This document shows, in pieces, positions 1 through 41,700 of a stretch of 64,000 bases of DNA; position 1 is the stretch's first letter; each line of letters opens with the position of its first letter. The stretch lies in NCBI GenBank assembly GCA_030295235.1, contig AP026125.1:682001-746000 (forward strand). Reading direction: 5' to 3'. The notes beneath the pieces are model-generated. The model was not told the DNA's origin and ran no database searches. It saw nothing but the letters and a program-made list of their open reading frames with translations. Position numbers and translations under genes: made by a program. Source of the stretch: Fistulifera solaris (taxonomy: Eukaryota).

Positions 1-753
1 TTGGCTTTGACCCATCCATTCGCACTACAGATACCTGATTCTTCATCTTTCTGTTTGTATTTCGCGAAGTTGTAGTTGATGGCAAACGCTTTCGAGGATT
101 GTGTCGTCTGGATGGCGTTGATCCACTTTTTGGCCGCGGGATTCGACTTGGGAAGCATGAAACCGTCCGTTTCATTCTTTTTCTTCTGAATTTCAGTTGC
201 GGTCTTCTCTTCTTTGGAAGGAACTTTTGTTTCATCTTTCTTCGACGAAGTATTCTTTGCGGTCGGCACGGAGAATGAGGCGATGGGGAGATTCAAATTA
301 AGGAATGGGGGCGTGGTCGATTCCACAGGGGTTTTGGGTACCTTCTTTTGCTTGTTATTATTCAAAGGTGTAGTAGAGCTGGGGTTGACAGTCGTTTCGA
401 CTTTGACTTTCTTTTGGGGTTGGCAAGGGGAGGTCGTCCTCGGAGCGTTTTCCCCTGCGATTTTTTCTTTTTTGCGGCGCTATCTTCGCCTCCCTTATTT
501 CTCGGAGGAGCGAAAGGATCATTCTTGTCGTCATTCTGTTTCGACTTACCCATTTCTGGTTCGCTTTCCGAGCTCACCACAGAACCGTGCTCGGTAACTT
601 TGTGAATGTCGTCGGACGCGTTCACTTCGTGAGAAAACTTACATGAATCACCGTGTCGACAGCCAGCCGCCGTTACAAAAAGGCACACGGCGCCTTTTTC
701 CCGTCAGCTGGTGCAGCGAAAAGCTTGTATTTCTTGTTGCTCATTGTTGACAT
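1..753 (-). CDS. CCCH zinc-finger protein, 5' part (runs off the window start; apparent frameshifts)
   Basis: ATG at 753 (MSTMSNKKYKLF...). After a one-base shift in the T-run near 680 it reads C-x-F-F-VTAAG-C-RHGDS-C-KFS-H (C-x8-C-x5-C-x3-H), then Lys/Pro-rich low-complexity sequence that continues past position 1. Confidence 0.65.
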
Positions 754-22012: not shown

Positions 22013-22486
22013 AGGGGGCAACTGCGGAAACTGCGGATACTATCGTCCAACATGTAGGCGACAAATATTATGATGACTGGATTTCAGTCATGAAACGAAT
22101 ATTGTAATCTTTACTTTTTTGTTGCTCGCATCCACCATGACCATTGTAAGCATTCCTTAATCGTTTGTGCTATTCTTCTGCAAAGCGTTTACGTTCTGAA
22201 CTGAAACTGAAACTGAAGCAATAAAATACGCCGAATAGGAGGGTCAAACTTTCCAAATTTGAAATTCAATATATTGATGTCCGAGTGGTACCTGGTAGTT
22301 TCCTGCTATACGCTATCGTGTACCGTGTTCGGGTTCTGATCGAGTGTCACTTTTTCGTAAAAACAAAATGCGAACACGGAACGGAGAATAATGGTTGGCA
22401 CACTTGTTCTGCGACTTCAAACTATTTACGAGAATGACACCATCATTAATTTCGTAACAACCAAACAACAGCAAAACATAAACAAA

Positions 22487-24618
22487 ATGGCCGAAGAGCC
22501 AATGACAGAAGCCGAGCCCATAGTGGGAGAGGACGCCACCCACGATGAGACCATTCTTTTGGACGACGCGATTCATTTAGATGACACGAGGCACACAAGA
22601 GGGGGAGGTCCACCCGATCACTCGACAAGAATTGGTCGCATTTACCATGTTACCTCCCAAAAAGTGATCACACCGGCTCATTCGTTTACTTCGGAAGCTC
22701 AGCGTCAACTGAAAGCGAATAACAAAGAGGAAGAAGAGAATGCAACGTGGAGAGATGTTGCGGCTGCCTGCTTTTGCCATTCTGCTGCACAATGGAGAGA
22801 TATTTTCCTGGGCGCTATTCTTCTCTGTGGTTTTCTATACTTCTTTCTCATCGGATTGGATTTGCTTGGCACGTCCTTTCAAGTCGTCGGAGGATGCACA
22901 GCAGGCTCATTGCTCGGCAGCGACACGAATCCATTGGCAAGTCTAATGATCGGAATAGTCGCCACCGCTTTGTTGCACTCGTCTGCGACGGCGACGGCAA
23001 TCATTGTATCGCTCGTCAACGGAGGACTGGATGTGGATCAGGGAATTTACATGGTAATGGGAGCAAACATCGGGACGAGTGTGACCAGCATGATCGTATC
23101 GCTTGCGCACATGGGTGATGGCGAGGAGTTGGAGCGCGCTTTCGGTGGATGCTCCACGCTATTTGTGTTCAATTTTTATACCGTGCTGGTGCTGTTTCCT
23201 CTCGAAATAGCAACGAAGTATTTGTATCATCTCACCAAGGCGATGCTACCTTCGTCCAGCAGTCGGCAGGAAGGTGAAAGCTGGGAAAGTCCTATCAAGA
23301 AAATCATTTCACCACTGACCAAAAAGGTACTTATCGCCAACAAAGGACTGATAGATGACATATCAACGGGAGAATTGGAGGGATGTGGATCCGTGTACCC
23401 AACTTTTTGTGAAGGTGGCGATGTATCCTACGCTTCGTGCAAACAAGGCCTTATTGCCTGCGACAAGAAGACGAATAAATGTCCGACTTTGTTTCAAAAT
23501 GGGGCGGACAAACGAGACGACATGGTTTCAGGATGGGTATGTCTTTTCATTTCGTTATGTCTGCTCATTACTTGTCTCCTTGGCCTCGTAGCACTACTCC
23601 ACAGAATGCTAGAGGGCGCTTCGAAGCGAATCATATACAAAGCGACAAACATCAACGGCTACTTCTCTATTGCCATTGGGTGCGGAGTCACGGCTGTGGT
23701 CCAGAGTTCTTCGGTCACTGTCTCTGCGCTGGTCCCTCTGGTACGTAAAACAAAGTGAACAGTGAACTATCGTTCAACACCAGTCTCTGACGATCACTCT
23801 TCTTTCAGGCCGGTGTAGGGATTCTCTCCTTGGAACAAATGTTCCCTCTCGTTATCGGGGCAGATATTGGAACAACGGTTACTGCATTAATGGCTTCCAT
23901 GGTGAGCAGCAAAGTCGAAGCGTTACAAATAGCTTTGGTGCATGTATTTTTCAATATAACCGGGGCGGTGCTGTGGTATCCTGTCCCATTTTTGCGACAA
24001 ATACCACTTAAAACGGCTCGTAAACTGGGACGAATTACAAGAGAGTGGCGAAACTTCCCTGTTCTCTTCATCTTGGTCGTCTATCATCTCCTTCCGATTC
24101 TGATTCTGGGTATTAGCAGTTGCTTTGAAAGAGACAGCAAAGGATTCCGAGCGTTGGGAACTTTCCTGACAATTATCATTGCTGCAAGCATTCTGTACTT
24201 AATTTACTGGTGGAATTTCAATCGGGGCCGAGAGAAGACTCGAGCATGGCAAACCCGTCGACAACGACGCCGTGCCGCTTTAGAGCAACTAGCCGACGAC
24301 ATGGATTATTGCAAGTGCGATATTGAGTACGTGAAGAATGAAGTTGGGCGCCTCAAGGATCTGGCGGGTATCAATGTTGAAGAAGGTGTCGCTTTGCAAG
24401 AAAAGCAATCGTCTCATCGACGAGTCGGTAGCCACGGGCAGGATATGTTGACCGGAGAAGACCACGTGTCCCTCTATCATTCCTGTCAATCGCAATCTTG
24501 GGCCAATGTCATTGCTTCTGCCGGCGGATCTTTGAGAGGATCTTTGCATTCCATATTCGAGCCTACGAATGCGTCAGCGGTGCAAGAAATTGATGATACT
24601 TATGATGATGGCAAGTAG
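22487..24618 (+). CDS. Sodium/phosphate cotransporter, SLC34 (NaPi-II/NptA) family
   Basis: NPLASLMIGIVATALL-HSSA-TATAIIVSLV, MGANIGTSVT, VQSSSV, GADIGTT.TA, ALQIALVHVFFN. Intron 23741-23808. Confidence 0.92.
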
Positions 24619-33139: not shown

Positions 33140-33601
33140 CTTGGAATTAATCAAACGGGAAGATATGTAAAGGCACGATAGAACTTGATGAATAACACAA
33201 TTATTAAGAAATGATAGCAAAATGTTTATTTTCTGCGTGTGCAGCAGTACAGTGAGTGCGTGCACTTTCTCCCGGTCTGTCCCCCCGTTCGTGCAATTTT
33301 ATGTGTTTAAAGTTTTAAAGTTCGACAATGAAACAAACGCTAAATCAAGCACACCTTCTAAAAACAGCAACATCGAAAGAGAAAGGCACCTTTCAAATGC
33401 TGCTATGTTACACCGAAGAAGGATAAAAGGATACAACAAAACCTAACATCGCCATTCACGACTGAAACCAGTCGGACACCCTTACAGTTGGGATTTATAG
33501 TAATATTGAAGGCGACAAAAATGAAGCGATGCGACGTGCGACGATGCGTGATGTGACGATGATGAGCGGTGACGAATCAATTCATTCATTCTTTCAGAAC
33601 C

Positions 33602-34342
33602 ATGAGATCGTTGCGCTGCTCTTCTCTTTTGACGGCGGCTCTTACTGTTGCCATTCATGCATTCTCCGCACCCAAATCAACATCCTTCCGCATTGTCGGC
33701 GATTTTCGAACGGGGACCCAATACCTGCCGACATCGTACGCTTTACGTTTCGTCCGATGGGAACTGGACCGAGAAAGCCACCTGATTCGAACAGATGACC
33801 AACCATTCACTTCACAATCATCCGATGGTGTATATATCCGACCGACGATGGACTTTGTGTTGAAAGGGGGCGTTCCGGCGTATTGTATGGTGGGCTTACA
33901 AACCATCTCCTCCAGAAGTAATGCCGGTTCTCTGCATTCATCAACCATCGCCCAACAGTGGCTACCGTTTGACATGATTGTAGAACCTAATATGCGGCTA
34001 CTCGTCTTCCGTGGAGAAGGGGATGGAACTGACGAAAGACTGGCACTCTTTGGTCCGGATGATGTCGGTATGACTTTACAGCGATTGGGCGTTGCCCTTT
34101 CCATGGAATCGGAACACAGTGAGCAGCTCAATCAGGGATTTCATATTGTTTCCATACCGATAAATGACGAATGGATCAGTGTTACGAAAGATGAAGGATC
34201 ATTCCCAACAACAACATGCATGGTTACGGCAGAACCGGAGCCCAGAGAACTGCTCACCCTTGACGATTCTCTTCTCGAACTCACGGCGACGTCTCTACTT
34301 CAATTTAACCTGGAAAATACCATTCAAGAACGCATAATGTAA
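33602..34342 (+). CDS. Hypothetical plastid-targeted protein
   Basis: Intact ORF of about 246 aa with leader MRSLRCSSLLTAALTVAIHA-FSAP (ASAFAP-type). Confidence 0.65.
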   Translation: MRSLRCSSLLTAALTVAIHAFSAPKSTSFRIVGDFRTGTQYLPTSYALRFVRWELDRESHLIRTDDQPFTSQSSDGVYIRPTMDFVLKGGVPAYCMVGLQTISSRSNAGSLHSSTIAQQWLPFDMIVEPNMRLLVFRGEGDGTDERLALFGPDDVGMTLQRLGVALSMESEHSEQLNQGFHIVSIPINDEWISVTKDEGSFPTTTCMVTAEPEPRELLTLDDSLLELTATSLLQFNLENTIQERIM

Positions 34343-34473
34343 CACTTTACATGAATCGCAAGTTTCACAATCTGTCGAAGCAATTAAATAAATCTCTACG
34401 ATTTTTGGGAGAATCAATGTGGAAATGCAAATTAAACACATATGAGTTATAAAATGATTAACGATACATCCTA

Positions 34474-37400
34474 CTACCTGAAATACACAATGGATCTCTT
34501 CTCTTCTAATTCCAGCTTCTTCTCGAGCAGTTCTTTCCGTCTCCTTTCTAATTTCTCTCGTATTGCGCGTTTCATCTCATCGCCGTTTGCGTCAGGTGTT
34601 GTACCTTTCGTTGGCGGAGCAGATTCACGTGGGACGTTTGATAAGTTGTTGCTGGCAAGCTCAGTGTTATTGGATGCCAGAGATGCAGTGTCTACCAGCT
34701 GCAGCGCAGATTTTTGATCCGTGTTTCCTTCTTCTGACTTATTGTTCAAGGAAGGTTCAGAACCAACATCGTTGGCAGCGGCGTCACTTACACTATTGAA
34801 CTGTTCTTTGTAGGCTCGAGACATTTCGCTGATTTCTGTACGCCGTTCTCCCCCAAATCCGTCTAAAACAATCTCAACGTTTTTGGTAGGTCCATCTTTC
34901 ATGGAAGTGTCCGATGTTCCTAGACTCTCGTCTATTGAAAAAAGAGACGACCCGGAATAAGCCGATGTCTTTCGTGGCTGAAGATCAGCATTCGGGTTCG
35001 CATCGTTAAATGGCAGACTTTCTAAATCGTCAGAAAGATGACTCAACACTGGGCCCTCCAGGCCCGATATTCTCGTCGTCCCGATGTGCTTTACATTGAA
35101 CCTGCTGCCATTTGCGCTTCCTGCCGTTGCATCTGTTCCTTGTCTTCCACCGTTCTTCCTGACCTTGTATGCTTGAATAATCATAGGCACGTAAATAAGT
35201 AGCTGCATCGACATGCTTATGGCAAAAACAAGAAAAACCTGAAGAAAATATCGAGCCGTAGGGTTATCACTGTCAATCAGAAAAAGCATAGGAAATCCGA
35301 CAGCAATCAGCTGAAACCAGCTGAAGAGTCCAACGCCCATGTTTTTAGCTTCGCTGAATTCGTCGCTTATATTTCGGGCTTGATAGGCCTGCTTACAAGC
35401 AACGAACAATGCCACAACATTCACAGCGCCCACTAGCATGGTCATCGTAAAAGAAATAGGTGTGCGACTGCCATCGTCGCTACTTTGACAGCTTCCGTAT
35501 GTGTTCCACGGCTCCCCTGCGATTTCGAGCCGTACAAATCGTAAGGGGTCAGCGAGAGTCCAGACAAGCATGAACGTAAAATTCAATGTAAACAACAGAG
35601 CAAACGGGGCCATGACGTCTACCTCCCTGACTCTCATTCGGCGCGAAGTTGCCCCAAAGAGCTTATTGATGCGCCATAGCTTTGAGAACAAAGCAGACAT
35701 AGCGACCGTGAATCCCATACTTAAGAGCCATGGCGATGCCATACAAGCGATGTCGCAACCGCGCTGCGAGCTTGTTCCATCGTCAATACTCAGGGGGATA
35801 ATCGCAAGCGCCATAACCAGCATCCCGGTCGAAATCGTCATGAGAAAGAAAGGCTGAAGAGTTTTCACAATTCGCAGGTTGCGGTAGTACCATACCCATC
35901 CGGATAGAAAAAGGGACGTGATGACAGCAACAGCTGTAAGAGTAAAACCAAGATACTTGATCGGCCCAAGATGGTTGAGGTTTTCCACCGGAGAAACACG
36001 CATTAAAACCTCAAAGGTTGCATCCTGGCCAGCACAGCCGGGGAAATTGCCACCATTTAGCACAGCGAATGCTACAGTACCTTGGGCAGTTCCAGGCTCG
36101 AGTTCTGAAGTAACAGCTTGAAAGGAATACTTAATTCGTCCGCCGGAGGGAACGGAAATTGCTTCGCCTTCCACTACTTGGACGGTGTCGCCTGATTCAA
36201 ACTTAGCAGTAGAGTAGTTGAGCCAAGCTGGTTTTGACTTGGGAACAACCATCACCTGATCAAGCTCGCTGTTGACCATCGAAATCTGGCCACTAGCCTC
36301 GTCCTTGGAACCTTGAAGTCCATCAAATTCTAATGCTTCACTTAAGAACGAAACTGCAATTCTTTCCGGGCACTTCTCACATATCGATAATTCTGGTTGC
36401 CAGAAAGTACCCGGAACACAATCGTCTGCAGTCTGAATAAAATTAAGAACTGTATCCGCGGAAGTATCGTTCACAATCCGACCGTTAATCGCAGCCTCAT
36501 AAGGAGAATCTAGATCCTGCAAGTAGTCTGTGACAATATCCTGCAGCAGAAGCGCATCAGAAGTCTTTCCAGGCTCCTCTCCTGGTGTAACAAGCTCGTC
36601 AACTAAAAATTCAGGGAACGGATCGAACCCTCCGCACATGAAGCTGTCCGTACAAAACTTATAAAGCTTCAATTGCTCAAGCGGTGCATATTCTTCTGCC
36701 TCAGAGTCCCATACTTCGATAGCCACAAGTCTGTCACCCTCTCTTTCCTTGTTAAAAACGACCTTCAAACCGGATACTTGTAGAAGCCTATCGCCGTCAT
36801 TCGTGTTCATTCCCTCAAAAGTGGCCACATTAATGGAGTAATTGAACATTTTGAAAACCGAAATACCATTCATAACGCCAGTACATGGGTTGTTTGGAAA
36901 TGGAAAGCCAGCCCAGATATCCGAGACACGTACATCGCCAGCTTCCCAACCCGATCCACGATATCCTCCGCTACTTGTAACAGCAAAGTCGGCTTTTGAC
37001 CACCACCGAAGCGCATCGGTAAACAGGTTTCCCAATTCACATTCACCGGCTTTACAGCGTCGATAGTCTTCCTCGCGACTGGCAGGCATAAAGGTAGCCT
37101 GGCCAACGACTGGATCATTCGCGGCTGCCTGGTTCGCTTGCTCCCTCAAAGCGTCAATGTTTGACGCGTACTCTTCATCTTTCAATGTAGCATTTAGGGT
37201 ATCCAGGCCATGTCGAATAAACTCGACACCGGTCACATTTTTCCCATCTGGGCTAAGCGTAAGTTTATGATGATAGTATTCTTCCGCACTGAGTGCGACG
37301 CTCGTCACCCATACGTTGCCAACTTTTTGAGGAGTCTCGAAAGCTGGGTCGTTTCCATCGACATCGATAAGAAGTGCGGGAGGATTTACGTGGTTGGTGA

Positions 37401-38163
37401 CGGCTGTCTTGAATGCTTCGTATTTTTCGAAACTATCAGCAAAGACCACAACAGGTATCCAACATCGGCTGTCACTATGGTCTGTTCGGTTCAAAAACGT
37501 ATCATAAATGCCGTATATTTCACCAGAGCAACCGTTCTGAACGTTGACACGGGCAATATAATCAAGTACACCCAGAGTTGACTCAATTTGATTGAAAGTC
37601 ATTGGCTGACCGTCATTTATATTGACGAGAACTGCCAAGCGAGTTTCGTCGTCAAAAAAGACAGGTATTGTGTATCGCGACCAACTTATACTGGGAGGTA
37701 TCGCTACATTTGTAAGCAAATAAGGAAAGTCTTCACTTTGCAACCCCGACAAGTCTCGCTGAGAAATGTCAAAATCTCCATTGTGTTGTGTCAAAAGACT
37801 CGGAGGGGCCGTGAAGACACGAAAACCGAAAATGTCCTGAAAGACTAATCGATTGACATTCCATACCAATGGATGCATCTGCACAAAGGGACTGTCTCTA
37901 TCCGCAAACGGCAGAACCAGCGAGGGCTCCCCTTTTCCGTAGTATCGCAAGAAAGCCGTAACAGCAGCCACTCCGCCCACGCAAGATTCGTCCTGTGCAT
38001 CCGCACAATCCGTCAACTCTCCGCTCAACAAAGGCGCTCCCGAAAGAACGAAATGAATGGTTTCGTTCGCCATCGTATCATTCACGTTGTCTTGTTCGCT
38101 CATGGTGATGAGAACAAAAAAGCTCGTTTTGAGGAGAATGTCTTCAAAGCGAAACACCCCCAT
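34474..38163 (-). CDS. Class C (GABA-B-like) GPCR with a 5'-nucleotidase-like ectodomain
   Basis: Single ORF over 1200 aa. 5'-NT C-domain (GECELGNLFTDA, SGGYR, FPF, LLQVSG), Cys-rich CVPGTFW..CEKCP, beta-rich linker, then 7TM with QPFFL, CMASPWLLSMGF, ALFSKLWRINKLF, DPL, AYQARNISDEFSE, P. Confidence 0.88.
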   Translation of the reverse strand: MGVFRFEDILLKTSFFVLITMSEQDNVNDTMANETIHFVLSGAPLLSGELTDCADAQDESCVGGVAAVTAFLRYYGKGEPSLVLPFADRDSPFVQMHPLVWNVNRLVFQDIFGFRVFTAPPSLLTQHNGDFDISQRDLSGLQSEDFPYLLTNVAIPPSISWSRYTIPVFFDDETRLAVLVNINDGQPMTFNQIESTLGVLDYIARVNVQNGCSGEIYGIYDTFLNRTDHSDSRCWIPVVVFADSFEKYEAFKTAVTNHVNPPALLIDVDGNDPAFETPQKVGNVWVTSVALSAEEYYHHKLTLSPDGKNVTGVEFIRHGLDTLNATLKDEEYASNIDALREQANQAAANDPVVGQATFMPASREEDYRRCKAGECELGNLFTDALRWWSKADFAVTSSGGYRGSGWEAGDVRVSDIWAGFPFPNNPCTGVMNGISVFKMFNYSINVATFEGMNTNDGDRLLQVSGLKVVFNKEREGDRLVAIEVWDSEAEEYAPLEQLKLYKFCTDSFMCGGFDPFPEFLVDELVTPGEEPGKTSDALLLQDIVTDYLQDLDSPYEAAINGRIVNDTSADTVLNFIQTADDCVPGTFWQPELSICEKCPERIAVSFLSEALEFDGLQGSKDEASGQISMVNSELDQVMVVPKSKPAWLNYSTAKFESGDTVQVVEGEAISVPSGGRIKYSFQAVTSELEPGTAQGTVAFAVLNGGNFPGCAGQDATFEVLMRVSPVENLNHLGPIKYLGFTLTAVAVITSLFLSGWVWYYRNLRIVKTLQPFFLMTISTGMLVMALAIIPLSIDDGTSSQRGCDIACMASPWLLSMGFTVAMSALFSKLWRINKLFGATSRRMRVREVDVMAPFALLFTLNFTFMLVWTLADPLRFVRLEIAGEPWNTYGSCQSSDDGSRTPISFTMTMLVGAVNVVALFVACKQAYQARNISDEFSEAKNMGVGLFSWFQLIAVGFPMLFLIDSDNPTARYFLQVFLVFAISMSMQLLIYVPMIIQAYKVRKNGGRQGTDATAGSANGSRFNVKHIGTTRISGLEGPVLSHLSDDLESLPFNDANPNADLQPRKTSAYSGSSLFSIDESLGTSDTSMKDGPTKNVEIVLDGFGGERRTEISEMSRAYKEQFNSVSDAAANDVGSEPSLNNKSEEGNTDQKSALQLVDTASLASNNTELASNNLSNVPRESAPPTKGTTPDANGDEMKRAIREKLERRRKELLEKKLELEEKRSIVYFR

Positions 38164-38786
38164 CGAATCTCCGCTGCAGAGACACCGGGGCACAAAAAAG
38201 CACGATAGGGGCGAGGATCGAGGATGGCATTTTCGAGATATTTCTTGGTCCTTTTTACTGTTTGCCTCGACCTCGGGCGTCGGAGTTCGGAGTTATTTAG
38301 AACGACACTTCCACATGTCGCTCGTGCACTTGGGTGCCGTTTCGGTACATTTCGATCAATACTGAATATAAAGTTTAACCGTTAATTAACTGTGTCGGAA
38401 CAGAGCTATAATGTAAAATTTGAGAGAACAATTATGACCCTTTGTCATAAGTCCTTTATCGCTCCTATACTGAGAGTATGGACTACTTTGTAGTTATGAT
38501 TTTCGGACTGTACCTTCTATCCAAGTGTTAGGCAGGCTAAAGGCTAAAATCTAAAATAGGTCTTCAGAGAGAGCTTGGGAGATTAGAAATTAGAAGCTAA
38601 AAAGAGATCAACATTTTTTGTCAATTTGACTATATCAGATGCCTTTATTAGCAACTGCTGTGCTAACCTGATACCGAATGTGACAATTTCCCATGTGCTA
38701 AACTACGGACTAGACCCGAAGGCAAGAACGCAAATGAAAGGGCTCGATGGTGTTACTTCACAAAGCGCAAGTCAATTCGTTTCAAA

Positions 38787-41700
38787 TTACGACGTCTTTG
38801 CACGCTTCGCACTCTGAATCTTCTCCTTTTACCTTCAGAACGGTACTTGCGTTTGAGCCTAGCCTTCCTCACGGCTTCTAGTCTGACTTCTTTTGAGCAT
38901 TCGACTTCTCAACCTGACTTTTTCGTTCCTCTTTCTTCGACTTTCGGATTGCCTGCTTCGCTTTGCGGATTGTATTCAATGCTTGGATAAAACTTTCCTT
39001 TCGTCTCTCATCGGCCTCCATTATGACCGCTCTTTTGGCTAGGTAACCTTTCTTGTTTCGCTGGCGCTCATCCTTAGGCTTGCTAGCATACGGTAAAGCT
39101 TCTTCGAGTTTTTTCGGCACAACGAGCTTTGTCTTGACTTGTTCAGGACGTTCGACAGGCTTATAAATTGAATCAGGATTCACTTCGATCGGAGTCTGAG
39201 TCTCAAGTTGTAACTGTATCAAGTAAAGCCAGTGAGTTACGATAGTCCTCTCCAGACAACTTTCACCGTCAAACTTACCTGTGTCTTCCCTTTCATGGAC
39301 CTCCACCCGCTCAACCCGTTCTCCGATATATGGTTAGTCACAGGGTTATAATAACGCTTGATATCTACCGGCATCCAAGTGCGACAGAATACGATATCTG
39401 ACATGAGAATCTTATCTTCAAAGGTCGCACGAAAAGATCCCGGCTGACCCTCCCGGAGCGCCTTTTTGATTGATCCTCGTATTCCGCTGACGGTTTTTAT
39501 ACTTGCGCCTTCAAATCGACTTACTTCTAGGTCGCTGTTAAACATCCCCGAAATAAAGGCAGTGTTCTTGTATATTTTCGAAGGGGTACCTACAAGCTTG
39601 AGCTTTTTCACAACAGGGAATGAAGCATTCAACTCCAAAACCACCCCGGTTGCAGCTATACGGAAGCCCGAAATATTATCTGTCACCCTTTGAATCGCCA
39701 AGATTCCTGTATTTGGTGGACATTGAGGGCCATAGAATGTAGCAAAACAGTGCATATGCTCGGGCGTATACTTGATATGTCTCTGGCGCCCATTAGTATC
39801 CTCAGTGGATCTGTTGATCACAGAGACTAAGTGTGAGAAAACCGCTTTTGTAGGGCATTGTGGTATGCAGCATACTTACAAAACTGGAATGCTCTGGAAA
39901 CGTCTCCAACCAATCGAAAACACGAGAGGGTCATTGCTTCGAAGAATTTTCTTGTGCCATCTATGCTTCTTAAACCGACATCTGGTAAGGGAGAGAGAGG
40001 TTTCCTGAGTTGTCAGTCCTCCTAAAACTAGAGGCATCTTTGGATCGAACCCGGTGACAAACCCCGACGGTATCCCTTCAATCTTCACTCTACAGTACAG
40101 TCCCTGACGGAAACCTTCATGGCGCAATCGTGACCGCTCTCCATCGATACCGAATTCTTCTTTGTTCCTAGCAAGGCGAGCTTCCTTTTCCCTTTTCAAA
40201 GCCTCGATATATTCGTTTTCAGCAGACTCATCATTCATGTCACCACCATCTTGCTTTTTCTCGTTGTCGTAGTCGTCGTCAAATTTACTTTTCTGCTCAG
40301 CCTTCTTTTTCGCATAAAAATCACGGAGCTCTTCGTCCGTCAGACCTTCTGGAGGTAAATCATCAATAGAACCAGTCGCATCCCGACCGGAGGAAGTAAA
40401 TTTCTCTCCACTTTCAAGATCTTCGAAGTCTCCGTACTCTTCTTCCTCTTCCTTTCCCCAGTTTCCGGTTACAAATTTGTTGCGAATGCTCTCAACCAAA
40501 CATCCATCGCTGTCTTCCAACCAAGGTGTAACGTTCAAAGGAGCTTCTACCATTCGACAAGAGTCTTCCTCGTCCAATACTAACGCCTCCACGTGGTTGG
40601 ACCCGGAAAGAGAGTTGTTGGCACGCGATCCAGTTACCTTTGGCTTGAAGAACTCGTCGTCATCATCGGATGAACTTTCGTCCTCGTCTTCAAGTGCCTC
40701 GTTGATCATGCTGGATTTTTGCGATTGACCGTAGACAAGCTCCTGAAGATTTATCATTCCTGATTCTCGCTCCAAAAATGATTGCTTAGCCCGTTCCGCG
40801 ATACTGGACTTCCAGTGATTAACTCCCAACGATGTTCCTTCGATTTCGTCTTCAGATAGATTTTCATCGTCGCTGCTTTCTGTGCCTTCTTCTTCCGATT
40901 CTTCATCAATTTCGTCATCCGATGACTCCTCGTCTTCTTCTTCGTCGTCCTTTTCATCGCCACTATCGCTTTCATTTTCGTCATCACTTTCACTTTCCAT
41001 ATCCTCATTTAAATCACCCAGAGCATCTCCTCGACGAGAAGACCGACGCCGATCTGTGTCAGATCCCTCTGATTCCGAGTCGTCATCGTCGTCCTCGCTC
41101 TCCTCTTCACTATAAGAAGATGATTCCTCAGCTACAATGGCTTTGCTGCCTTTAAAAATTCGAAACGACGACTTCTTCATTTTTTCATCGACACTTGTTC
41201 TAACATCTTGCAAATTCTTTAACATGCCAGCTGGTGCATCTGAATCGTACTCCACTTCTTCTTCCTCTTCCTCATCATTGTCGGCATCGCCATCGTCCTC
41301 TTTGCGTCTCGAAATTATGGCTAAATTTTCCTTCTTAGTATAGTTGGCTTGTCGAATGTCAATGTAGACAGCGTCCTTGTCGAAAGTGACAGCCCCTACA
41401 TCCGAAAGCGGAGCAAACAACAGTGCATCTTTCTTACTGAGTGTCGTCCGATCACGCTCCTTATCTGGTAGTGGACAAGGATCCGGTAAAACGCTAATAT
41501 CCGCCATGTCGTAATCCCCGACTCCAATGAGATGAACTTTCATCTTAGGATTCAGGTGCGTCCCTCGAACAAATCCATAAAAAACCATGGTTCGGTCGCA
41601 TTCGGGATCATTTTCCACATCGTTAGGATTTGTTATATCTTCATGCCGATCAACAACAATGTACGGGTGAGTATTTTTCCATACTAAAGGTCGGAACTGC

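Follow-up and report, generated by a model that had tools for sequence, protein, structure and literature searches.

The stretch of DNA analysed here, referred to as the window, comprises 64,000 nucleotides of Fistulifera solaris (GenBank assembly GCA_030295235.1, contig AP026125.1, positions 682,001 to 746,000 of the forward strand). It carries on its minus strand a gene whose product is probably a class C G protein-coupled receptor (GPCR) in which a catalytically inactive, two-lobed 5'-nucleotidase-fold ectodomain serves as the ligand sensor. This overall reading is favoured with somewhat better than even confidence, and the interpretation of the ectodomain as a sensor built on a pseudoenzyme is likely. 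By comparison, the assignment of a nucleotide or nucleoside as the ligand is tentative and falls short of even confidence, being drawn by analogy with the enzymes from which the fold is known.

Domain layout and ectodomain fold

According to the translation of the open reading frame (ORF), a single uninterrupted minus-strand frame extends from an ATG at 38163 to a stop codon at 34474-34476. An earlier first-pass annotation of this DNA, made from the sequence by eye, had covered 35160-38163, which corresponds to amino acids (aa) 1-1001, i.e., the ectodomain and the seven-helix domain, beyond which a tail of 228 aa follows. The parts of the predicted protein are as follows, all on the minus strand:

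34474..38163, minus: whole ORF, 1229 aa plus stop, with no intron seen
38101..38103, minus: Met21, a possible true start, equivalent to the start of the closest relative P0003 (77% identity)
37174..38067, minus: N lobe (aa 33-330), calcineurin-like phosphoesterase fold without the dimetal ligand set, by structure match
37120..37176, minus: inter-lobe helix (aa 330-348), by DSSP on the model, within the range aligned to CD73
36460..37119, minus: C lobe (aa 349-568), the 5_nucleotid_C substrate-binding lobe, by Pfam, phmmer and hhalign
36364..36426, minus: Cys-rich unit (aa 580-600), with C582, C595, C598 and P599
35989..36360, minus: stalk (aa 602-725), an immunoglobulin (Ig)-like beta sandwich of the PapD/ASH/MSP type, by the model of aa 566-735
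35185..35964, minus: class C (GABA-B-like) seven-helix domain (aa 734-993), by 7tm_3
34477..35184, minus: cytoplasmic tail (aa 994-1229), of low complexity with a charged, helix-like end, by translation

In Pfam searches, 5_nucleotid_C was matched at aa 352-517 (E 2.7e-24, 86.5 bits against a cut-off of 23.6) and 7tm_3 at aa 734-993 (E 1e-31, 111 bits against a curated cut-off of 33.5). Neither a Venus-flytrap domain (ANF_receptor or PBP) nor Metallophos was matched in the window protein at E<=1. The best matches of the seven-helix domain among solved structures are the GABA-B R1 and R2 chains (E 3e-17 to 4e-11, best 2.7e-17). The GABA-B-like seven-helix domain and the missing flytrap domain had both been proposed in the first-pass annotation, and these searches bear them out.

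The two-lobed fold, also part of that annotation, was confirmed by structure prediction and comparison with CD73. An AlphaFold2 model of aa 1-735, with a 49-row alignment as input, reached a mean predicted local distance difference test (pLDDT) score of 88.7, and a Foldseek search of the PDB with this model returned 5'-nucleotidases as top matches (E 1e-26 to 1e-21), including the Thermus entry 2z1a (E 9.8e-27) and many CD73 entries (about 1e-25). These matches extended over approximately 590-620 aligned columns, and therefore both lobes were matched. When VIA-align was used, CD73 (6s7f) gave a Z of 25.3 and a root-mean-square deviation (rmsd) of 5.5, the alignment covering 461 of 519 residues (model 33..568, chain 26..551), the E. 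coli 5'-nucleotidase a Z of about 22, and the N domains of YfkN and CpdB a Z of about 18 over model residues 31..352; the Z for SoxB was also about 18. At equal Z, the rmsd was about 5.5 against closed CD73 forms versus 11-13 against open forms. The model is thus closed-like, a feature that may reflect the predictor and says nothing on dynamics. A two-copy prediction of aa 330-735 as a homodimer gave no verdict (score 0.00).

The Cys-rich unit and the beta-rich linker described in the first-pass annotation proved real as well. In the model of aa 566-735 (pLDDT 90.2), a short Cys-rich unit precedes an Ig-like sandwich (PapD/ASH/MSP type), whose best match in a VIA wide search is the SPD-2 domain of CEP192 (7ptb, Z 13.8, rmsd 2.2 over 113 residues), with further matches to 2qsv (VIA, Z 12.9) and 6fvi (Foldseek, E 7e-7). 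C595 and C598 are invariant in the 49-row alignment, and the equivalent of the Cys-rich unit matches Pfam Ephrin_rec_like in 6 of 73 scanned relatives, though not in the window protein.

Residue conservation was assessed in a family alignment of 110 rows, consisting of the window protein (P0001) and P0003-P0111, with the identical P0002 left out. Within the seven-helix core, which looks intact, the Cys pair joining transmembrane helix (TM) 3 and extracellular loop 2 is kept (C807 in 110/110 rows, C892 in 105/110), the cytoplasmic end of TM3 is basic (K828 in 105/110, R831 in 103/110), and that of TM6 is acidic (E938 in 101/110). The Pro of the TM7 Pro-Lys motif, P993, is present in all 99 filled rows, whereas the Lys, which is class-conserved and not universal, is not kept; the next residue is M994 here and I (41), M (15), L (12), A (12) or V (11) in the family. 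Tails are not conserved across the family except among nearest relatives. A segment at aa ~1195-1229 (34477-34580) is rich in Lys, Arg, Glu and Leu and helical or coiled-coil-like; it is common to P0003 and faint in a few near relatives. GABA-B subunits pair via C-terminal coiled coils, and a corresponding role for this segment was considered and dropped because the tails are not conserved.

Metal site and candidate ligand pocket

The N lobe went undetected when sequence profiles were compared with real enzymes. When PDB sequences were searched with a profile built from 35 ectodomain fragments, the matches covered the C lobe alone, plus one stretch back to profile position 233, and family-level hhalign aligned only aa 282-551 to UshA and only aa 282-566 to seven real 5'-nucleotidases. 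A forced low-threshold hhalign was colinear and non-significant (probability 3%), with a register of motifs I and III at odds with the strand positions of the model. Because detection at the sequence level failed, motifs I, III, IV and V can be assigned to individual residues only approximately.

Irrespective of the register chosen, the N lobe is unable to form the canonical set of dimetal ligands and catalytic Asn-His. Metallophos was matched in 0 of 73 scanned relatives and, even at E<=10, in 0 of 35 ectodomain fragments; a single His column in aa 35-335 is at least 60% conserved (H97, 82/110 rows); and the corresponding ligand columns are invariant in the seven real 5'-nucleotidases, namely the motif I Asp, the Gly-Asp, the Gly-Asn-His-Glu-Phe-Asp, the motif IV (TH-type) His and the Gly-His. 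The motifs quoted for this lobe in the first-pass annotation are present (CVGGVAA at aa 61-67, PFAD at aa 85-88, PPSL at aa 120-123 and FPYLLTNV at aa 146-153), and its claim that the metal ligands had been lost holds for the canonical dimetal site as a whole but not for the motif II Asp, which is probably kept.

Considering individual positions, structural alignments start at model residues 33-34 versus CD73 26-27 and at model residue 29 versus UshA 27, from which A43 and L45 would fall at the motif I Asp and His positions, assuming no gap. A weak phmmer stretch to CD73 and the low-confidence hhalign both place D88, the last residue of PFAD, at or beside the motif II Asp. D88 is kept in 94/110 family rows and in 18 of 19 cyclase-type relatives (described below), and is most likely the retained bridging Asp of that motif. 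The candidates for motif III are A119-S122, by strand position, or T125-N128, by the low-confidence hhalign, neither of which is a conserved Asn-His. D243, an Asp in 83/110 rows, probably occupies the motif IV His position, as judged from its strand in the model.

The C lobe, by contrast with the N lobe, is readily aligned to real enzymes. With phmmer, aa 368-526 align to CD73 (E ~2e-8), and E-values for CD73 and the Thermus 5'-nucleotidase range from 6e-9 to 2e-8; with hhalign, aa 282-566 align to real 5'-nucleotidases with a probability of 99.5. The C-lobe motifs of the first-pass annotation were all found where it had quoted them (CKAGECELGN at aa 370-379, GGYR at aa 399-402, PF at aa 421-422, SF at aa 507-508 and GGFD at aa 511-514). 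Invariant columns of the seven real 5'-nucleotidases were mapped onto the family by phmmer and hhalign, and the resulting pocket positions have the following compositions in the 110 family rows:

K371, at the first Arg of the real enzymes: K 43, M 18, Y 12, Q 11
R402, at their second Arg: R 90
F422, at the Phe of Pro-Phe: F 89, Y 15 (F or Y in 104/110)
N424, at the Asn two residues past Pro-Phe: N 92
Y501, at the Tyr of the real enzymes: Y in 110/110
F508, at the second aromatic: Y 46, F 37, W 12, H 11 (Y, F, W or H in 106/110)
D514, at the Asp of Gly-Asp-Gly: D 41, V 16, E 10

Among the 19 cyclase-type relatives, R402, the aromatics at 422 and 508, and Y501 are each kept in 19/19, and position 514 is Asp in 6. 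In CD73 and UshA, the two aromatics stack the base, Arg residues hold the phosphate, and an Asp holds the ribose hydroxyls. By this analogy, the family-wide retention of the Arg and the two aromatics suggests a ligand that combines a planar ring with an anion, while the variability of the remaining pocket positions suggests that ligand specificity may differ among paralogues. The claim that the pocket had been kept therefore stands in part: the equivalents of the CD73 residues are as named and the Arg and two aromatics are conserved, whereas K371 and D514 vary across the family.

Relatives on two signalling outputs

Of 8000 candidates scored in a word-indexed search, 114 proteins reached E<=0.001; 106 of these contain both PF00003 and PF02872, four are partial forms of the same family, and four are flytrap-type class C receptors matching the seven-helix domain only. 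Since 106 of the 114 database relatives carry both domains, the architecture is not a chance ORF, and it is common among diatoms. All organism names printed in full among the 114 are diatoms, with sources including Cylindrotheca, Nitzschia, Seminavis, Thalassiosira, Cyclotella, Epithemia, Odontella, Skeletonema and a Bacillariaceae metagenome-assembled genome. Two-domain relatives labelled as MMETSP transcript ORFs are P0021, P0023, P0087, P0095, P0196 and P0198, and P0021, P0023, P0087 and P0198 also bear the label 'type:complete'. A search for shorter C-lobe proteins gave eight fragments of the same family only. One GPCR-type relative, P0152 (1462 aa), has a 2OG-FeII_Oxy_2 domain at aa 1248-1457, beyond the seven-helix domain; this is a genuine fusion at the C terminus or else the product of two gene models joined into one.

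With aa 1-570 as query, an exhaustive HMMER search identified 1167 representatives at E<=0.001, of which 294 reach 1e-10 and 140 reach 1e-30. Among the best 150 of the 1167 matches, 121 were new; 73 of these were scanned with Pfam and 48 were left unscanned. While 28 of the 73 scanned relatives have 7tm_3, 19 carry Guanylate_cyc instead:

P0127, P0155, P0156, P0160, P0166, P0169, P0175, P0178, P0180, P0188
P0199, P0202, P0207, P0208, P0212, P0228, P0230, P0233, P0236

These 19 proteins show the same degenerate N-lobe motifs as the GPCR-type family, and D88, H97, N104, N152 and D243 are conserved in both sets alike. A clear signal peptide is present in 16/18 of the cyclase-type relatives. All nine that were examined have one strong TM helix separating the Cys-rich unit from the cyclase domain; an Ig-like sandwich is missing in this group, and the helix comes directly after the Cys-rich unit. 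Some are labelled 'class 3 adenylate cyclase', and those with a named source come from Euglena longa and the kinetoplastid Papus ankaliazontas. The window protein has no Guanylate_cyc and has 7tm_3 in its place, the ectodomain being the only part it has in common with them. The occurrence of the same degenerate ectodomain on two unrelated outputs, a seven-helix domain and a class III cyclase, argues for the pseudo-5'-nucleotidase ectodomain being a modular sensor. A further search with an alignment of the cyclase-type relatives did not extend the family and returned real 5'-nucleotidases.

A FastTree phylogeny of 135 ectodomains was rooted with UshA, a single distant outgroup on a long branch. 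In this tree, the cyclase-type rows are basal, and a branch with support 55 has all 115 GPCR-type rows on the same side, two cyclase rows standing next to its base. Two changes of output (GPCR or cyclase) are needed on the tree versus a mean of 18.9 changes after shuffling. At the base of the GPCR-type group stand P0087 and P0136, both with signal peptides, P0136 being outside the rows scored for signal peptides. It is suggested that the metal site was lost before the ectodomain joined the seven-helix domain; because the root is weak, this order of events is a suggestion at most.

The claim of a single gene is in line with the public sequence data at the locus. The region 34426-38131 is tiled without a joint by contigs of the small public runs X2-X4, with zero depth on both flanks of the ORF (33400-34369 and 38250-38637). 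The stalk/seven-helix border is crossed by one contig (X2 record 10, 35626-36228), as is the lobe/stalk border (X4 record 28, 35986-37249). The locus looks like one intronless mRNA; since the RNA nature of runs X1-X4 is the tool's guess only, the contigs are consistent with this and not proof of it. X2 and X3 contigs both stop at 34426, 48 bases beyond the stop codon and one of them with a 27-letter loose end, a position that may be the 3' end of the transcript, which contigs cannot prove. In addition, X1 contigs with clustered base differences inside the ORF (36016-36058, 37026-37108 and 37837-37980) occur beside contigs identical to the window, probably representing a second allele or a close strain.

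Competing explanations and known systems

In the proposed mechanism, the ectodomain would be held above the membrane by the small Cys-rich unit and the Ig-like sandwich, and the C-lobe pocket, at the inter-lobe cleft, would take up a small molecule from outside the cell that combines a planar ring with an anionic group (a nucleotide, a nucleoside or a metabolite of that kind). Binding would shift the arrangement of the lobes, and the stalk could relay this change to the seven-helix domain, which would in turn act on heterotrimeric G proteins. That the window receptor binds nucleotides, moves about a hinge and couples to G proteins is a proposal.

Several points weigh against the sensor reading. 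The homology of the N lobe rests on the predicted fold, because sequence profiles do not detect it. The conservation of D88, H97, N104, N152 and D243 in this lobe makes a residual single-metal or other site possible. In the pocket, the ribose-Asp equivalent D514 is Asp in just 41/110 rows, the Arg equivalent K371 is Lys in 43/110, and the Asn equivalent S397 is Asn in 18/110. Among the 89 diatom GPCR-type members that begin with Met and extend to the first strand, only 7 have a signal-peptide-like hydrophobic N terminus, which is odd for a disulfide-rich outward domain of about 700 aa. The runs behind the contig tiling were typed as RNA by guess.

A real but rather doubtful alternative is that the ectodomain is a sensor for something other than a nucleotide, such as a metabolite of a different anionic or aromatic kind, phosphate in inorganic or organic form, a pheromone or a partner protein, with differences in specificity among paralogues. 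The wide variation of pocket positions besides the Arg and two aromatics, as in diversified chemoreceptor families, speaks for it, as do the disappearance of the metal site with which the enzyme holds phosphate and the existence of a fold relative, SoxB, that acts on a non-nucleotide substrate; set against this, the residues that are kept are presumably those that stack the base and bind the phosphate, and they are invariant in real 5'-nucleotidases. A different question is whether the ectodomain is still an enzyme that works through a non-canonical site, with the seven-helix domain as a membrane anchor or product sensor. The five N-lobe residues conserved in both output types would suit such a site, and the model is nearer to closed than to open CD73. 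However, the canonical set needs several His residues and an Asn-His pair, of which one conserved His column is found, and fusion to two different signalling outputs suits a sensor better than a hydrolase; continued catalysis is accordingly very unlikely.

The placement of the domain on the inner side of the membrane, as an internal regulatory or nucleotide-binding domain in a receptor of inverted or unusual topology, is only a shade less improbable than that. It would account for the scarcity of hydrophobic N termini and for the finding that 64 of the 89 members have <=15 residues ahead of the first strand, and for the window gene, the sole hydrophobic and weakly signal-peptide-like stretch lies within Met1-Thr20, upstream of the Met21 at which P0003 suggests a possible start. 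An outward-facing ectodomain is nonetheless argued from sequence features. Conserved Cys pairs (C53/C61 and C370/C375) align to CD73 disulfide positions, the loops of the window protein have 17 Lys and Arg residues on the side predicted to be inner and 5 on the outer, which fits the usual N-out topology, and the cyclase-type relatives combine signal peptides with one TM helix after the domain; the signal-peptide-bearing P0087 and P0136 at the base of the GPCR-type group likewise count against a cytosolic domain. Finally, two adjacent genes read as one would be hardly credible: nothing positive supports such a gene-model artefact beyond the guessed nature of the runs, whereas the frame is open across all borders, single contigs cross two of them, and the fusion recurs in the 106 relatives, four of which are labelled as MMETSP transcript ORFs. 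The sensor with an inactive 5'-nucleotidase-fold ectodomain thus remains the favoured explanation.

Among known systems, this receptor resembles CD73, UshA, Thermus 2z1a and NadN throughout the two-lobed fold, with the inter-lobe helix included (Z 22-25), CD73 and bacterial 5'-nucleotidases in the C-lobe motifs around the Arg, Pro-Phe and second aromatic, and CD73 in two Cys pairs at its disulfide positions. Unlike these enzymes, it has no canonical dimetal or Asn-His set and is fused to a stalk and a seven-helix domain. The Metallophos ligand signature of the active 5'-nucleotidase/UDP-sugar hydrolase family is absent, solely the Asp of the Gly-Asp (D88) seeming to be kept, and no hydrolytic activity is expected of the ectodomain. 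With GABA-B and other class C GPCRs, it shares 7tm_3, the TM3/extracellular loop 2 Cys pair, the basic residues (Lys/Arg) of TM3 and the acidic one of TM6, and it differs from them in having no Venus-flytrap/ANF domain, no Lys in the TM7 Pro-Lys motif, and a stalk made of a Cys-rich unit and an Ig-like sandwich. One binding fold on two outputs is familiar from natriuretic-peptide-type receptor guanylyl cyclases and metabotropic glutamate receptors; here too one extracellular fold serves a class C GPCR and a single-pass cyclase, but the fold is a pseudo-5'-nucleotidase and the organisms are protists.

The first-pass annotation had put the receptor forward as a candidate new one; the pairing of 5_nucleotid_C with 7tm_3 is already in print. 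Port 2013 (PMC3727952, Fig. 4 legend) marks some diatom class C GPCRs with a '5-nucleotide-C' box, and passages of the same paper gloss the domain as sugar degradation, count such receptors as having no ligand-binding domain, list the TM3/extracellular-loop-2 Cys pair as a class feature (section 9), and report G alpha and G beta in four diatoms. Krishnan 2012 (PMC3251606) places 5_nucleotid_C in the Capsaspora Glutamate-family receptor CASP_EFW44378.1, and a passage of an eLife 2025 paper (PMC12716839) describes 5_nucleotid_C and Ephrin_rec-like in Glutamate receptors of choanoflagellates and other close animal relatives. In the passages concerned, these diatom, Capsaspora and choanoflagellate proteins share the Pfam pair of the window protein, with the domain listed without interpretation. 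The Venus flytrap is typical of class C but not required, as Cache-type members show; GPR158 and GPR179, of this type and named in PMC12716839, are similar in combining a class C bundle with another small-molecule-binding fold and dissimilar in that the ectodomain here is a pseudo-phosphoesterase clamshell, not Cache. The relevant passages of PMC3727952, PMC3251606 and PMC12716839 do not mention metal-site loss, a ligand or cyclase-linked relatives, and PMC7452957 has nothing on this domain. Full-text searches, whose coverage excludes subscription journals and supplements, gave no further literature on 5_nucleotid_C with 7tm_3, no paper on 5_nucleotid_C with Guanylate_cyc, and nothing relevant on receptor-type cyclases with a nucleotidase ectodomain. 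The pseudoenzyme-sensor analysis and the sharing of the ectodomain with receptor cyclases were not found in print by these searches.

Diatoms account for a large share of ocean primary production, and to our knowledge hardly any diatom surface receptor has a known ligand. The present family, with >100 database members in diatoms, is a candidate that can be put to the test for the sensing of nucleotides, nucleosides or organic phosphate outside the cell, because its binding domain derives from a nucleotide-handling enzyme. On a broader scale, it is possible, though more doubtful than the assignment of a nucleotide or nucleoside to the window receptor, that the degenerate 5'-nucleotidase clamshell is an old and widespread eukaryotic extracellular sensor for purines, nucleotides or organic phosphate, with a class C GPCR as its output in diatoms and a single-pass cyclase in euglenozoans and other protists. 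If true, lineages without P2X receptors would have in these proteins their first candidates for a receptor of extracellular nucleotides or of dissolved organic phosphorus; the pertinent part of the PMC11085791 survey records no P2X receptor in any diatom genome examined. The presence of the dead-enzyme module on Euglena and kinetoplastid cyclases suggests an overlooked general sensor domain, parallel to the flytrap fold common to glutamate-type GPCRs and receptor cyclases in animals, and would offer a clear example of an enzyme fold turned receptor domain.

The genes around the receptor are ordinary eukaryotic ORFs, including a Vps18-like gene. About 11 kb from the receptor, an ORF at 22391-23758 on the plus strand contains a Na+/Pi cotransporter domain (PF02690, E 2.6e-23), with no functional link implied. 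On the minus strand, two ORFs at 39237-39755 and 39876-41588 jointly encode a BMS1/TSR1-type ribosome biogenesis protein (AARP2CN and both RIBIOP_C halves), in a gene evidently interrupted by a short intron.

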